Of a stretch of DNA of 64,000 nucleotides, positions 17,638 to 25,660 are shown piece after piece. This DNA is from an uncultured Acidobacteriota bacterium (GTDB taxonomy: Bacteria > Acidobacteriota > Vicinamibacteria > Fen-336), in assembly GCA_963720545.1 (NCBI GenBank), contig OY970399.1, positions 2,438,908-2,502,907 on the forward strand, read 5' to 3'. The position numbers and the translations under genes are program-made. Each line of letters starts with the position of its first letter. The first letter of the stretch is position 1. The notes under the pieces are model-generated. The model saw only the letters and a program-made list of their open reading frames with translations. It ran no database searches and had not been told where the DNA came from.

Positions 17638-20346
<2,709 letters not shown>

Positions 20347-20367
20347 AGTCGCTGTCTCCGTTCTGGA

Positions 20368-20853
20368 TCATCCCGCGCGGCGGCTGGCGACCAGCAGGAT
20401 GAGGGCGAGGAATACGACACTTTCGACGACCATGCGCCCGGGGTCGAAGAGGGCGATCCCGGGTGCCAGCACGAAGGCGGCGGCCGCCAGGCCAAACACC
20501 AGCCCCGCCTGCACCAGCGCGCAGAGCCGCGGCGTCGTGCGCGTCAGCACCCAGACGGCGAGCAGCACCTGCAGTGCACCGATGCCGAGGCGCCAGTCGT
20601 CGGCGTAGGAGAACCAGCGGCCGGGCAGCGCCACCAGCATCGCGTCGTCGGACGCGCAGCCGTGCAGCAGCTTGCACCACAGGCCGTTGTAGAGCCAGGC
20701 GAACGCAAGCGCCAGTTCGGCGAAGAACAGCACCGGGCCGCCGCGGCGCTCGCGTGCCCGGCGGGCGGCGGCGATCGCTTCGGGCGTGAGCGGCTCGAAA
20801 CCATCGGGAGGCGTGTCGTCGCTGTGCCGCAGGCTGAGATCGAGATCCGTCAT
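20368..20853 (-). CDS. DoxX-like family membrane protein
   Basis: 162 aa with 4 TM helices and a DoxX-like pattern (LALAFAWLYNGLWCKLL...). 21-nt gap to acnA. Confidence 0.6.
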   Translation of the reverse strand: MTDLDLSLRHSDDTPPDGFEPLTPEAIAAARRARERRGGPVLFFAELALAFAWLYNGLWCKLLHGCASDDAMLVALPGRWFSYADDWRLGIGALQVLLAVWVLTRTTPRLCALVQAGLVFGLAAAAFVLAPGIALFDPGRMVVESVVFLALILLVASRRAG

Positions 20854-20917
20854 CGAAGCGCCTCTATCGTCGCATACTTGACGCGGTGTAGCGTGGTTGC
20901 GGAGGCACAGGAAAGTC

Positions 20918-21895
20918 ATGGAAAAGCGGATCGCGGCCAGCGCCTTGCTGGCGAGCCTGCTGTTGGCCGACGCCGCTGTGGCGGCGGTCAAGGTGCAGGA
21001 AAAAACCGAAGCGAAGTTCGGCGGCCTGATCGGTGCGATGGCCGGTGCGATGGGCGGCGGCGCCAACGCACCAACGCTCAGCACGGTGGCGGTGCTCGGC
21101 GACCGCAAGCTGTCGCTCAGCGCGATGAGCGGCGAGATCATCGACTTGCAGGAAGAAAAGGTCTATCGGCTCGACCCGCGCAACAAGACCTACACCGTCC
21201 TGAGCTTCGCGGCGATCCGCAAGCAGATGGAAGACGCGCGCGCCCGCATGCAGGGCAAGAAGCCGCAGGCCGAGCCGCCTGCGGCCGCCGCGCCGGGCAA
21301 GGACCCGAACGTCGAAGTCGATTACGACGTGAAGGATACCGGCCAGGCGAAGGCGATCAACGGCTTCGACGCGAAGCAGATGGTCCTGACCATCAGCGTG
21401 CGCCAGAAGGGCAAGACGCTCGAACAGGGCGGCGGCATGGTGATGCGCTCGGACATGTGGATGAGCGACGCGCTCGGCGCGCGCAAGGAGGTCGCCGACT
21501 TCGACCGGCGCTACGCGCAGAAGCTCTACGGCGGCGCCGACCTGGGCGCGGCGCTGGCGTCCATGGGACAGATGGCTTCCGCCGCGATGATGAATCCCGG
21601 CATCGGCCCGGCGATGGCGAAGCTGCGCGCCGAGACGGACAAGATGCACGGCTCGCCGGTGCTGACCACCACAACCATGGAGTCGGTGCGCAACCCCGAG
21701 CAGCCGGCGGGCGGGGATGCGGCGGCGGCCGGCGGCTTCGCGGCGCTCCTGGCGCAAAAGATGAAGAAGGGCGGCGGCGGTGGCGGCGACGAAGCGCGCA
21801 GCGTCCTGATGACGACCACCCACGAGGTGCTGAGCGTCTCGTCGCAGGTGACGCCGCAGGACGTCGCGCTGCCCGCGGGATACACCGCGAAGTAG
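20918..21895 (+). CDS. secreted hypothetical protein
   Basis: Signal peptide MEKRIAASALLASLLLADAAVAA. No recognisable domain. Gly-rich C-terminal region. Confidence 0.6.
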   Translation: MEKRIAASALLASLLLADAAVAAVKVQEKTEAKFGGLIGAMAGAMGGGANAPTLSTVAVLGDRKLSLSAMSGEIIDLQEEKVYRLDPRNKTYTVLSFAAIRKQMEDARARMQGKKPQAEPPAAAAPGKDPNVEVDYDVKDTGQAKAINGFDAKQMVLTISVRQKGKTLEQGGGMVMRSDMWMSDALGARKEVADFDRRYAQKLYGGADLGAALASMGQMASAAMMNPGIGPAMAKLRAETDKMHGSPVLTTTTMESVRNPEQPAGGDAAAAGGFAALLAQKMKKGGGGGGDEARSVLMTTTHEVLSVSSQVTPQDVALPAGYTAK

Positions 21896-21907
21896 CCCGC
21901 GCGGCCG

Positions 21908-22609
21908 TCAGAGGGCCGGGTGCGGCAGGCGTCCCGCAACCTCGAACTGCGCGCGCGGGAAAGCGAACGCGGTGCGCGCGAAGACGTCTTTCTTGCGCAG
22001 CTCGACCCGCTCGCGCGTCGCGACACAGTGCCACGCCTGCGGCGGCGTCGGCCGCGCCGCGGCAAAACCCTGTGGCGAGAAGAGCGCGAGGCAGACGCCG
22101 CCTTCGCGGTCGCGTGCCGAGCGGTAGCGAAACGCGACCACCGCGGCGGCGCGCATCTCGGCGCCGAGCTGCTGCGAAGCGGCATAGGAGACGGGCGACG
22201 AGATGGCGGCGGCGTGCGCCGCGAACGGCGGGCGCGTGAGGTCGATGCCTTTTTCCGTGCGCACCACCGCCTGGAACGCCGACAGCTCGAGCACCAGCGG
22301 CGCGAGTGGCGCCGCCGACCCTTCGAGGAAGAGCAACCGGTAGTAAGCCGCCTCGGCGAAGGCAGTGCGCGGCTCGTCGGCGCCGTACCAGAGGGCCCGC
22401 TCCTGGCGGGTGCCGAAGCGCGAACCGTGCCGCAGCGGCGGATAGCGAAAGGGCGTCGCCAGCAGATAGTGGAGCGCGCGGCCCTTCTCGAGCGGCGGCT
22501 TCACGCCTTCGATGAGCTCCTCGAGCAGGTGCTGCTCCGCATCCGTGTCGACGAGCTTGCGGGTCGCGACCAGGTACTGCGATTCGACTACGCGCCAGGG
22601 CCGCGCCAC
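21908..22609 (-). CDS. RES domain toxin (RES-Xre toxin-antitoxin family)
   Basis: RES signature residues in context (RHGSRFG, LWYGADEPRTAFAE, FRYRSARDREGGVCLALF). Proposed GTG start at 22609 with a GAGG RBS, 13 nt after the antitoxin stop. The alternative ATG at 22663 would overlap the antitoxin by 41 nt. Confidence 0.8.
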   Translation of the reverse strand: MARPWRVVESQYLVATRKLVDTDAEQHLLEELIEGVKPPLEKGRALHYLLATPFRYPPLRHGSRFGTRQERALWYGADEPRTAFAEAAYYRLLFLEGSAAPLAPLVLELSAFQAVVRTEKGIDLTRPPFAAHAAAISSPVSYAASQQLGAEMRAAAVVAFRYRSARDREGGVCLALFSPQGFAAARPTPPQAWHCVATRERVELRKKDVFARTAFAFPRAQFEVAGRLPHPAL

Positions 22610-22622
22610 GAGGCGCCTCGCC

Positions 22623-22997
22623 CTAGAGCTTCCCGCGCATCGCGTCCAGATACTCGACGACATGCACCAGTCCGGGGATGGTCAGGACGAGTTGCGCCGG
22701 CACTCCGCCGACATGGGCGTTGCGGCTGCGGAACCAGTCCCTGGCCTTGGCGGCGTCGCCGCCCACCAGGGAGTCGAGGCTGCGGTAGAGGCGCAGCAGG
22801 AGGAGTGCGATCTCGCCCTCCTTGGACAACGGATCGAGGCGCCGGCGGGGCAGCCGCGAGATCGAGGCCTGGCTGACGCCGAGGATCCTGCCGAGGTCGC
22901 GCTGCGCGAGGCCCAGGTGGTCGGCCGCCCGCATCACCGCCTTGGTGAGCACTGCCGCCGGCTCGGGCCTGCCGGGTTGTGCGGCGCCTTGCAGCAT
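22623..22997 (-). CDS. Xre/MbcA/ParS-type antitoxin (HTH plus DUF2384 toxin-binding domain)
   Basis: HTH LGLAQRDLGRILGVSQASISR. C-terminal DUF2384-like segment (ARDWFRSRNAHVGGVPAQLVL). Sits immediately upstream of the RES gene. Confidence 0.8.
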   Translation of the reverse strand: MLQGAAQPGRPEPAAVLTKAVMRAADHLGLAQRDLGRILGVSQASISRLPRRRLDPLSKEGEIALLLLRLYRSLDSLVGGDAAKARDWFRSRNAHVGGVPAQLVLTIPGLVHVVEYLDAMRGKL

Positions 22998-22999
22998 GA

Positions 23000-23035
23000 T
23001 GCAAGTGAATCACAAGACCTTGTTTATTGCAAGTG
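23000..23035 (-). promoter_or_regulatory. candidate autoregulatory operator and promoter of the RES-Xre operon
   Basis: TGCAAGTG direct repeats (23000-07 and 23028-35) flank the palindrome ACAAG-AC-CTTGT (23012-23). On the minus strand this reads TTGCAA-N17-TTCACT, ending 6 nt before the antitoxin ATG. The region is locally AT-rich. Confidence 0.35.
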
Positions 23036-23076
23036 CATGGAGCCGGTCGGGGCCGGCCCCGCTACAATCCCCGCAC

Positions 23077-24747
23077 ATGCTCAAAACCTGCCTGCGCCTG
23101 GCCGTGTTCGTGGCCGCCACAGCGCCTCTCCACGCCGACACCTATCCGCGCCAAAGCGGCGTCGACATCGCGCGCTACGTGTTCAAGCTGTCGCTCCAGG
23201 ATGGCAGCGACGAGATCGCGGCAGAGGCCCGGATCGACGGCGAGCGCACCACTGCACTTCCGCCGCCGCAGGCTCTGGTCCTCGACCTGGTGAAGCAGTC
23301 GGCGGCGCGCGCCGGCAAGGGCATGGCCGTCCGCGCCGTCGAGGTGAACGGCGCACTCGCCGCGTTCAGCCACGAACAGGACCGGCTCAGCGTGCCGCTG
23401 CCGCCGGGGGCACCGCACACGCGCTTCAGCGTGCTGGTGCGCTACCACGGCGTGCCGGCCGAAGCGCTGCGCATCGGCCCGAATCGCTATGGCGAGCGCA
23501 CCTTCTTCAGCAGCAACTGGCCGGACCTGGCACGCAATTGGCTGCCGGTCGTGGACCATCCCTACGACAAGGCGGCGTGCGAATTCGACATCGAGGCGCC
23601 GGCGCACTACCAGGTGCTCGCGAGCGGCGTGCTGGTCGAGGAGACCGACCTCGACGGCGACCGGCGGCGCACCCGCTGGCGGCAGGATGTGCCGATTGCG
23701 CCGTGGCTCTACGGCATAGGCGTCGCGCGCTTCGCGGTGGAACAGCTCGGCACCGTGCGCGGCACGCCCCTCTCGACCTGGGTCTACGCCCGCGACCGCG
23801 ACCACGGCTTTGGCACCTTCGCCCATCCGACGCCCGAAGCGTTCTCTTTCTTCAGCGAGAACGTCGGCCCTTACGCCTACGGCAAGCTCGCGAACGTGCA
23901 GGCGGCGGGCGTGCGCGGCGGCATGGAGCTCGCCGGCAACATCTTCTACGGCGAGGATTCGGTCGCGGGCCCGCGCGTCACCGAGCGCTGGCACGACGTC
24001 ATCGTCCATGAGATCGCCCACCAGTGGTTCGGCGACTCGGTCACCGAAAACGACTGGGACGACGTCTGGCTGAGCGAAGGCTTCGCCACTTACTTCACGC
24101 TGCTCTTCAACGAGCGCACCTACGGGCGCGACGTGTTCCTCGCCAAGCTGGAGGCAAGCCGCAGGCAGGTGCTCGAGTTCGCCGCCGCCAATCCCGGCTA
24201 CCGGGTGATCCACGAGAACCTCGCCGACATGACGAAGGTGCTGAGCGGGCAGATCTACCAGAAGGGCGCCTGGACGCTGCACATGCTGCGCGGCGTGGTG
24301 GGCGACGACGCCTTCTGGCGTGGCGTGCGCGAGTATTACCGGCGCTACGCGGGTGGCAACGCGACCACCGCCGACTTCGAGCGTTGTCTCGAGGACGCAT
24401 CGGGCCAGGAGCTCGGCTTCATGTTCGACCAGTGGCTGCGCCGCGCCGACATTCCGCAGGTGAGCGCCGGCTGGAGCTACGACGAGGCCGTGCACCAGGT
24501 GCGGCTCGAGATGACGCAGGGGGCTGCCGCCTCCGACCCGGGCGCCGCCGCCTTCAAGCCGCTCCGCTTGCCGATGCAGGTCGAGATCCGCGCGGCCGAT
24601 GGCAGCACCCGCCGCGAGGCGGTGACCTTCGATCGCGAGCGCCAGGAATTCACGTTCGCGGCGCCAGCGCGGCCGGCCGCTGTTGTCTTCGACCCGGACA
24701 ATTTCGTGCTGATGGCCGCTGCGTCGCGCACCGCCGAAGCGCGCTAG
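23077..24747 (+). CDS. M1 family zinc aminopeptidase, secreted
   Basis: HEIAHQWFG with a downstream E (WLSEGFATY). Signal peptide MLKTCLRLAVFVAATAPLHA. Confidence 0.9.
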   Translation: MLKTCLRLAVFVAATAPLHADTYPRQSGVDIARYVFKLSLQDGSDEIAAEARIDGERTTALPPPQALVLDLVKQSAARAGKGMAVRAVEVNGALAAFSHEQDRLSVPLPPGAPHTRFSVLVRYHGVPAEALRIGPNRYGERTFFSSNWPDLARNWLPVVDHPYDKAACEFDIEAPAHYQVLASGVLVEETDLDGDRRRTRWRQDVPIAPWLYGIGVARFAVEQLGTVRGTPLSTWVYARDRDHGFGTFAHPTPEAFSFFSENVGPYAYGKLANVQAAGVRGGMELAGNIFYGEDSVAGPRVTERWHDVIVHEIAHQWFGDSVTENDWDDVWLSEGFATYFTLLFNERTYGRDVFLAKLEASRRQVLEFAAANPGYRVIHENLADMTKVLSGQIYQKGAWTLHMLRGVVGDDAFWRGVREYYRRYAGGNATTADFERCLEDASGQELGFMFDQWLRRADIPQVSAGWSYDEAVHQVRLEMTQGAAASDPGAAAFKPLRLPMQVEIRAADGSTRREAVTFDRERQEFTFAAPARPAAVVFDPDNFVLMAAASRTAEAR

Positions 24748-24757
24748 TATCGAAGGG

Positions 24758-25660
24758 TTGACCCCCACCGAACAGCATCATCAGGGCTTCGTCGAGTGGC
24801 TCGACGCGCATCGCCGGCTGCTGGTGATCACCGGCGCCGGTTGCAGCACCGCTTCGGGCATCCCCGACTACCGCGACCGCAACGGCGACTGGAAGCACAA
24901 GCGCCCGGTGTCCTACGGCGACTTCGTCGGCAGCGCCGCGGTGCGCCAACGCTACTGGGCGCGCAGCCTGGTCGGCTTCGCGCGCGTCGCCGCCGCCGAA
25001 CCGAACGTGGCGCACCGCGCACTGGCGCGCCTCGAAGCCATGGGCCGCGTCGAGCGCGTCGTCACCCAGAACGTGGATGGCCTGCATCAGCGCGCCGGCA
25101 GCCGCGCTGTCATCGACCTGCACGGACGGCTCGACGCGGTGGGCTGCCTCGACTGCGGGCAGCGCGTGGCGCGCGCCGATGTGCAGACGCTGCTCGTCGC
25201 CTGGAACCCGCGCTTTGCCGCGGTGGCGGCGATGGCGGCTGCCGGTGCGGCACCCGACGGCGATGCCGTGCTCGAAGGGCCGTTCGACGACCTCGCGGTT
25301 CCCGACTGTCCCGCGTGCGGCGGCGTGCTCAAGCCCGCGGTGGTGTTCTTCGGCGAGAGCGTGCCGAAGCCGGTGGTGGCCGACGCTTACAGCGCCCTGC
25401 AGCGAGCGGACGCCGTGCTGGTCGTGGGTTCGTCGCTGATGGTCTATTCGAGCTTCCGCTTCTGCACGGCCGCAGCGCAGGCCGGCAAGCCGTTGGCACT
25501 GCTGAACCTCGGGCGTACGCGCGCCGACGACATCGCGTCCGCGCGCTTCGCGCTCGAATGCGGCGCCGCCCTCAGCGCCGCGGTCGAGGAACTTCGCTAT
25601 CCCGGCACCTTCCAGGCGACGGTGCCGCGCGGCGGGTCGTACCAGCCCGGATCGCCGTAG
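24758..25660 (+). CDS. cobB: NAD-dependent protein deacylase, Sir2/CobB family
   Basis: TTG start with an AAGGG RBS. GAGCSTASGIPDYR, QNVDGLH and a Zn ribbon (CLDCG...CPACGG). Confidence 0.85.
   Translation: MTPTEQHHQGFVEWLDAHRRLLVITGAGCSTASGIPDYRDRNGDWKHKRPVSYGDFVGSAAVRQRYWARSLVGFARVAAAEPNVAHRALARLEAMGRVERVVTQNVDGLHQRAGSRAVIDLHGRLDAVGCLDCGQRVARADVQTLLVAWNPRFAAVAAMAAAGAAPDGDAVLEGPFDDLAVPDCPACGGVLKPAVVFFGESVPKPVVADAYSALQRADAVLVVGSSLMVYSSFRFCTAAAQAGKPLALLNLGRTRADDIASARFALECGAALSAAVEELRYPGTFQATVPRGGSYQPGSP

Follow-up and report, generated by a model that had tools for sequence, protein, structure and literature searches.

The best described relatives of the system considered here are NatR and NatT of Pseudomonas aeruginosa (PA1029-PA1030; structures 8QNL and 8QNQ), an antitoxin-toxin pair in which a hexamer of four NatR and two NatT chains (4R:2T) binds and represses the natR promoter, while a 2R:1T form does not bind and offers a route to toxin activation (PMC11535050). 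Promoter binding was shown in that study; the operator sequence was not defined (PMC11535050). In P. aeruginosa natRT is a core-genome module with no phage association (PMC11535050), and a published survey found the NatRT family to be primarily proteobacterial. Described here is a pair of this kind from an uncultured Acidobacteriota bacterium. It lies on the minus strand of a 64,000-nucleotide stretch (assembly GCA_963720545.1, contig OY970399.1, positions 2,438,908 to 2,502,907), which is called the window and to which all coordinates below refer unless a locus is named. An original prediction, made from the letters of the stretch, had recognized an intact RES-Xre type II toxin-antitoxin module. 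We put the probability at roughly 0.8 that the locus is an orthologue-level relative of P. aeruginosa NatR-NatT residing on a Vicinamibacteria-like acidobacterial chromosome. Its toxin very probably acts on NAD+. Autorepression is probable too, the promoter lying directly against the start codon of the antitoxin gene.

Three other RES systems provide useful comparisons. The Xre-RES pair of Pseudomonas putida also forms a 4:2 antitoxin:toxin repressor with two DNA-binding dimers; a primary imperfect inverted repeat is needed for repression and a second site about 20 bp upstream has been predicted (PMC12204516). Its toxin is without the NatT-type Flap (PMC11535050), and it was not matched when PDB sequences were searched with the window toxin. 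MbcT-MbcA of Mycobacterium tuberculosis (6FKG) shares with the window pair the RES fold, a PF09722 antitoxin and NAD+ phosphorylase chemistry, the last of these predicted for the window toxin, but MbcT has no Flap, is shorter (a chain of 183 aa) and resembles the window natT product at the level of fold only. The anti-phage defence protein aRES (bioRxiv 10.64898/2026.01.28.702374) likewise has a RES domain and depletes NAD+ to ADP-ribose-1''-phosphate; it is, however, a stand-alone two-domain protein of defence islands that lacks an Xre antitoxin, whereas the window carries a two-gene pair in a housekeeping neighbourhood.

Relationship to NatR-NatT

The antitoxin matches PF20432 (Xre-like-HTH, E 7e-13) and PF09722 (E 5e-14), and the toxin matches PF08808 (E 3e-27), all above the Pfam gathering thresholds, which were used as the cut-offs. 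The signature residues of the RES domain are present as R82, E104 and S182 of the window toxin. These are the domains and motifs originally named, and their presence on two full-length proteins supports an intact RES-Xre type II pair. The narrower assignment to the MbcTA/ParST type did not survive. When both proteins were searched with phmmer against all PDB chains, the only matches of either were the NatT and NatR chains of 8QNL and 8QNQ: the toxin matched 8qnl_C over residues 3-250 (E 7e-57, 48% identity) and the antitoxin matched 8qnl_A over residues 8-124 (E 6.5e-27, 48% identity over 117 aa). An AlphaFold2 model of the toxin, computed as a single chain with 29 homologues in the alignment (mean pLDDT 84, pTM 0.83), gave 8qnq_C and 8qnl_C as best Foldseek matches, with TM 0.86 and 46-47% identity. 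MbcT (6fkg_B) came out at TM 0.45/0.58 and 14% identity in the same comparison, and the PDB search held no sequence-level match to it at E <= 1. The ParS-type antitoxin model NCBIfam NF049845 scored the window antitoxin at 34.8 bits (cut-off 90), and ParT was absent from the PDB sequence and fold matches of the toxin. From the PDB matches, the fold ranking and the ParS-model score it therefore follows that the pair belongs to the NatRT (Flap-type RES) branch and not with MbcTA/ParST.

The likeness to the P. aeruginosa proteins runs from end to end, at about 48% identity, and takes in the Flap insertion, the R-E-S triad, both phosphate pockets and the NatR arginines. The antitoxin gene comes first in both organisms, the two toxins are each 251 aa long, and NatR has 122 aa as against 124 aa here. 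Residues were mapped on a MAFFT alignment of 85 sequences and are numbered as in the NatRT paper (PMC11535050). Family counts here and below, whether of residues, overlaps or upstream boxes, have as denominator 84 related loci, in which natR starts were assigned heuristically. The wider family (L001-L080) is from Gemmatimonadota, Acidobacteriota and others; the nearest relatives of the window pair were fetched by toxin identity and are L081 and L082 (97%), L083 (75%), L084 (74%), L090 (71%), L091 and L092 (70%).

NatT residues R23, R82, Y93, E104, Y108, Y162, S184 and R186 are all kept in the window toxin and are invariant or nearly so among the 84 relatives. Four of them (R82, Y108, Y162 and R186) coordinate the active-site phosphate of NatT, and N193 is listed with the conserved RES active-site residues (PMC11535050). 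Seven of the eight positions R23, R82, Y93, S184, N193, Y108, Y162 and R186 are thus retained; the eighth, N193, is Cys191 here (codon 22091..22093, minus strand), and in a tally of ten NatT active-site and phosphate-coordinating residues nine are kept. The interface-pocket residues K54, Y66 and Y74 of NatT are also kept, and the phosphate-pocket and interface arginines R70 and R119 of NatR are R72 and R121 in the window antitoxin. The Flap, a helix-loop-helix that touches NatR in the P. aeruginosa complex (PMC11535050), corresponds to residues 27-66 of the window toxin (22466..22585, minus strand), where the model has pLDDT 51-76; NatT residues E26, D38, E42, E47, K54 and Y66 are found there as E27, D39, E43, E48, K55 and Y66.

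Could the toxin nevertheless be a protein ADP-ribosyltransferase like ParT, rather than an NAD+ phosphorylase? RES domains do have the ADP-ribosyltransferase fold, and weak fold matches to pertussis toxin and tankyrase were seen. The nearest characterized relative, by a wide margin, is however NatT, a demonstrated phosphorylase (PMC11535050); the phosphate-coordinating R82, Y108, Y162 and R186 are all in place, and ParT appears among neither the sequence nor the fold matches. A transferase of the ParT kind thus seems very improbable, and assignment of the toxin to the NatT-type phosphorylases is preferred. Close homologues of the toxin carry the database name 'RES family NAD+ phosphorylase'.

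NatRT-type pairs, as predicted from sequence, are very common in metagenome-assembled genomes of Gemmatimonadota, Vicinamibacteria and Thermoanaerobaculia; species-representative genomes yielded at least 557 confirmed stretches. Beyond the sub-clade of the window, the closest toxin relatives among the matches listed are also from Vicinamibacteria.

Overlapping reading frames

Gene natR (22623..22997, minus strand; 124 aa, ATG start, TAG stop) encodes the antitoxin and putative repressor, with an Xre-like HTH and a C-terminal toxin-binding domain. Gene natT (21908..22663, minus strand; 251 aa, ATG start, TGA stop) encodes the RES-domain toxin, a predicted NAD+/NADP+ phosphorylase. Both reading frames are intact and full length, with the antitoxin gene upstream, in agreement with the two-gene minus-strand cassette of the original prediction. 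The short gap that had been placed between the genes is instead a 41-nt overlap (22623..22663, minus strand), since natT starts at ATG 22663, and one stretch of DNA thus holds both the final 13 codons of natR and the opening 13 of natT.

The toxin gene is taken to begin inside natR because the N-terminus read from ATG 22663 is conserved and aligns with that of NatT: MSSSIWTRCAG is kept in 29 of 29 aligned homologues, with I5, W6 and T7 invariant, and its first residues (MSSSIWT) align with NatT from residue 2 onward (NatT: MSEIW). The same two observations rule out GTG 22609 as the toxin start, which would have left a gap of 13 nt. For natR, an in-frame TGA lies upstream at 23010..23012 and any later start would delete the conserved first helix, so ATG 22997 is the sole possible start.

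The identical 41-nt overlap is present in 82 of the 84 related loci. Pseudomonas pairs are without it; their genes are separated by 134 nt in P. aeruginosa and by 37 and 0 nt in two other species. At the acidobacterial locus L036 natR and natT also do not overlap, and the termini of the proteins are still homologous. The two frames of the overlap encode the C-terminal helix of NatR (VEYLDAMRGKL) and the conserved N-terminus of NatT (MSSSIWTRCAGSS); in 8QNL the corresponding NatR helix plugs the active site of NatT (PMC11535050). How did one segment come to encode both? In Pseudomonas and in L036 the two termini are carried on separate DNA (the regions compared were 22623..22663, minus strand, of the window, 3900..4100 of L036 and 1330..1515 of L085), and the comparison suggests that the overlap was created, or resolved, through a short duplication. 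Because the genes overlap by 41 nt, natR and natT are almost certainly co-transcribed. A crude clustering of open reading frames over 85 loci, where calling is noisy at 70% GC, returned only natT, natR and antisense artefacts as recurrent, and no third conserved gene.

Operator-like boxes and the promoter

Upstream of natR are two operator-like boxes, each a 12-bp imperfect palindrome, with centres 28 bp apart. The distal box, O1 (23027..23038, minus strand), is ATGCACTTGCAA, with half-sites ATGCAC and TTGCAA, the right half being the candidate -35 hexamer. The proximal box, O2 (22999..23010, minus strand), is ATTCACTTGCAT, with half-sites ATTCAC and TTGCAT; it lies over -10/+1 and ends 1 nt before the ATG. 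They agree with the family motif at 9 and 8 of 10 positions, respectively. O1 and O2 are exactly the two direct repeats TGCAAGTG that had been pointed out as flanking the spacer palindrome, and the repeat is real (11 nt, 10/11 identical, 28 bp from start to start). It has just these two matches in the 64-kb window, and shuffling of the 79-bp intergenic region yields one of equal quality in 0.8% of cases.

Comparison with orthologous promoters brings out two conserved upstream blocks, AT.C.CTTGCAA and TGTGATTCAnTTGnATCATG, which are invariant in the closest orthologues (L081, L083 and L084) and carry single substitutions in L090 and L092. When the closest orthologues are aligned, bases of O1 on the 5' side of the -35 hexamer are seen to be conserved too (AT.C.CTTGCAA). 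The TGTGATTCAnTTGnATCATG block is an imperfect palindrome in the window (TGATTCA-ct-TGCATCA) and a perfect one in L083 (TGATTCA-ct-TGAATCA) and in L084 (the 16-mer TGATTCAATTGAATCA). The two-box design is seen more clearly in the wider family, for example in L054, with CTTGCAATTGCAAG and CTTGCAATTGCAATG separated by 13 nt. When upstream regions were scored with the 12-mer TTKCANNTGMAA, a motif derived from the same loci on which it was counted, at a threshold of 8 of the 10 specified positions, at least one box was found in all 84. Two boxes are present in 61 of 84 regions, against a mean of 0.5 in shuffles, which preserve composition and leave shared ancestry in the count; 44 of these pairs are spaced at 28 bp, 16 at 27 bp and a single one at 29 bp. 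Such strict spacing, across phyla and with unrelated spacers, would be hard to explain except as a bipartite protein-binding site.

Half-sites of the TTKCA type (TTTCA and TTGCA) recur in Pseudomonas natR promoters in a different layout; transfer of the motif to Pseudomonas was rejected on this ground, and the operator model is proposed for the Acidobacteriota/Gemmatimonadota clade only. The P. putida system, with its primary inverted repeat and predicted second site upstream, parallels O1 and O2, but its sites are about 20 bp apart as against 28 bp in the window, and the operator sequences are apparently unrelated.

The operator had originally been sought in the spacer palindrome ACAAGGTCTTGT (ACAAG-gt-CTTGT, 23012..23023), which has 5-nt arms around a 2-nt centre that is not palindromic. 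An inverted repeat as good (5+2+5) is found in 28% of shuffles of the 79-bp intergenic region. The palindrome is missing from the promoters of L083, L084, L090 and L092, and the spacer as a whole is conserved in the 97% relatives only. On both grounds, chance level and poor conservation, the palindrome was rejected as the operator. Two further candidates were set aside. An inverted repeat of 9+9 nt (CTTGCAtCA and TGcTGCAAG, 22988..23005) lies on the natR start codon and puts a third TGCAA half-site inside natR codons 2-3. Neither L083 nor L084 keeps this repeat, and it was left out of the model. Midway between the divergent genes, whose intergenic region is 79 bp long, lies a perfect 14-nt GC-rich palindrome, CGGGGCCGGCCCCG (23048..23061), which is broken in the 97% relatives L081 and L082 and is probably non-functional.

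The promoter strings TTGCAA-N17-TTCACT are literally there, as had been read. The candidate promoter (23004..23032, minus strand) comprises the -35 hexamer TTGCAA (23027..23032), a 17-nt spacer and the -10 hexamer TTCACT (23004..23009), with 6 nt between the -10 and ATG 22997. A TG at 23011..23012, one base 5' of the -10 hexamer, would amount to an extended -10 configuration. This geometry is conserved among orthologues of 70-97% toxin identity. Transcription is predicted to start about 7 nt past the -10, at or beside A22997 of the ATG, and the 14 nt between the in-frame stop and the natR ATG hold no Shine-Dalgarno sequence. A -10-like signal about 10 nt 5' of the start codon is an accepted computational signature of leaderless genes (PMC3160421). 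Scoring of the best promoter was too noisy across the family for leaderless genes to be counted, and the frequency of Shine-Dalgarno sequences was compared instead. Where the proximal box is centred no more than 8 nt from the start codon (56 loci), only two have a Shine-Dalgarno-like sequence; where the boxes are further upstream (28 loci), seven have one, and it is clearly of the GGAGG type in L057, L076 and L001. On balance a leaderless or near-leaderless natR messenger RNA (mRNA) is slightly favoured, the chief doubt being the weak -10 of the sub-clade.

The most likely start of the divergent, plus-strand M1 peptidase gene is ATG 23077, from which MLKTCLRLAVFVAATAPLHA is read, a signal-peptide-like sequence. 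The gene has a good -10, TACAAT (23063..23068, plus strand), 8 nt 5' of the ATG and no Shine-Dalgarno sequence. The M1 peptidase mRNA, too, is possibly leaderless, and the host may make frequent use of such starts.

Chromosomal position and predicted function

Towards natT, the gene order nearer the pair is aconitase, DoxX, a secreted protein without a Pfam match, natT and natR; on the far side of the aconitase are an amidohydrolase, RelA/SpoT, a HAD hydrolase, a beta-CASP nuclease and an FGE-sulfatase-like protein. Beyond natR follow the M1 peptidase, SIR2, an outer-membrane efflux protein, a beta-lactamase-fold protein and a MacB-type permease. The two adjoining genes are those originally named, an M1 peptidase (by Pfam) and a Pfam-less protein with an N-terminal signal-peptide-like stretch. 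Of the fetched relatives (70-97% toxin identity), four have contigs that extend far enough, and in each of the four DoxX-aconitase stands beside the pair; SIR2 is on the opposite side in three of these (L081, 97%; L083, 75%; L092, 70%), while L084 (74%) shows DoxX-aconitase. In L081 and L083 SIR2 and the efflux gene are separated by a multicopper oxidase, and the genes directly adjoining the pair vary among these relatives. The window aconitase is about 80% identical to named Vicinamibacteria proteins.

From the isolated placement between unrelated genes it had been proposed that the cassette is a horizontally acquired addiction or abortive-infection module. In its full form this account holds that a MbcTA/ParST-type cassette arrived recently and that its antitoxin represses through ACAAGGTCTTGT. 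The flanking genes are indeed unrelated to the pair, the toxin shares the RES superfamily with MbcT (the fold-level match to 6fkg_B), and the palindrome does lie between the -35 and the -10. GC is flat, however, staying at 0.67-0.73 across 15-31 kb without a step at the cassette. Scans of the entire window for tRNA genes and for Rfam families found none of either, the neighbours include no integrase, transposase or phage gene, and neither protein matches a PADLOC defence model. The chromosomal position is the same in L081, L083 and L092, and partly in L084. The chance-level palindrome and its absence from orthologous promoters, together with the MbcT and ParS-type scores given above, count against the remaining elements. 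We consider the acquired-cassette account quite improbable; its operator and its recent transfer are by now mostly refuted. A recent horizontal acquisition thus lacks support, but an older transfer between phyla may have taken place. The evidence points to long residence of a NatRT pair in this lineage, like the core-genome natRT of P. aeruginosa, and both are stably chromosomal with no phage association; the host phyla differ (Proteobacteria and Acidobacteriota).

The SIR2-family gene (24758..25660, plus strand), presumably for an NAD-dependent deacylase, is 1.8 kb from natR, a curious pairing of an NAD+ consumer with an NAD+-degrading toxin. It stays on the natR side in the three diverged relatives (1003..1839 of L081, 856..1680 of L083 and 675..1565 of L092) and is unlinked to natRT across the wider family; the proximity is probably mere local synteny. 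Very long open reading frames run antisense to real genes; one of them (17674..22239, plus strand, 1521 aa) faces aconitase, DoxX and natT. Such frames arise artefactually at about 70% GC and are not genes. Maximal reading frames also overstate 5' ends: that of DoxX has 257 aa, where L081 has 161 aa, and that of the secreted hypothetical protein has 332 aa as against 325 aa.

If the homology with NatRT extends to function, NatR dimers would bind NatT via the Flap, and the C-terminal helix of NatR would plug the toxin active site. The inert 4R:2T hexamer would place its two DNA-binding NatR dimers on O1 and O2 and so repress natR-natT; a complex of this kind would require two boxes placed as these are, one over the -35 and one over -10/+1. 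A shift to 2R:1T would then derepress the promoter. Freed NatT would cleave NAD+ and NADP+ with phosphate to nicotinamide and ADP-ribose-1''-phosphate, with growth arrest and tolerance as the predicted outcome. The geometry of the promoter would have the natR mRNA begin at the ATG or within a few nucleotides of it.

Several observations weigh against an autorepressed NatRT pair of this description. The -10 TTCACT has three of six consensus matches and is without A at position 2, on account of which a generic sigma-70 scan reported no promoter in 21700..23300. The derivation of the 12-mer motif from the counted loci and the ancestry that these share, mentioned with the counts, belong here as well. 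The operator model is not directly transferable from P. aeruginosa, because there the repeat layout upstream of natR is different, natR has a Shine-Dalgarno leader (GAGGAGG) where the window ATG abuts the promoter, and the genes do not overlap. Among the mapped toxin residues, the two departures from P. aeruginosa are Tyr for Glu29 and Cys for Asn193. NatT E29 is a hinge residue, and E29D activates the P. aeruginosa toxin (PMC11535050); the position is Tyr30 in the window and His in 76 of the 84 relatives, so that hexamer stability may differ from that in P. aeruginosa. At the N193 position Asn is found in 71 of 84 relatives and Cys in seven, and Ser, Ala and Gly also occur in otherwise intact homologues.

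The cysteine raises a further alternative, namely that the toxin is attenuated or dead and that the pair is kept mainly for NatR as a transcription factor with a non-toxic partner. N193 is among the conserved RES active-site residues (PMC11535050), and Cys is shared by the window and its nearest relatives P0001-P0004. The remaining catalytic and phosphate-binding residues are nonetheless invariant or nearly so, and Ser, Ala or Gly in intact homologues suggests that change is tolerated at this position. Full-length genes of relatives at 71-97% identity moreover retain Cys, as does P0031, and simple decay of natT would not readily explain this. An attenuated or dead toxin thus appears unlikely, and a NatRT pair whose toxin is predicted to be active is the reading retained.

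What does this locus mean for the family? Alone it adds little, as the biochemistry, structure and autoregulation of NatRT were published in 2024. Mildly new, as predictions drawn from sequence, are the family-wide two-box operator, the conserved 41-nt dual-coding overlap and the active-site Asn-to-Cys replacement. Of use to the NatRT field would be the candidate operator TTKCA-NN-TGMAA, in two copies 27-28 bp apart, and the predicted abundance of stably chromosomal pairs in Acidobacteriota and Gemmatimonadota. It is a tentative and rather doubtful idea that the pairs of these two phyla form a distinct architectural variant, with two operators 27-28 bp apart, a leaderless promoter, the 41-nt overlap and, in one sub-clade, the active-site Cys. 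Were these features functional, for instance through a redox-sensitive active site or tighter translational coupling, the pair would be a chromosomally fixed regulator of NAD homeostasis that is controlled unlike the Pseudomonas system.

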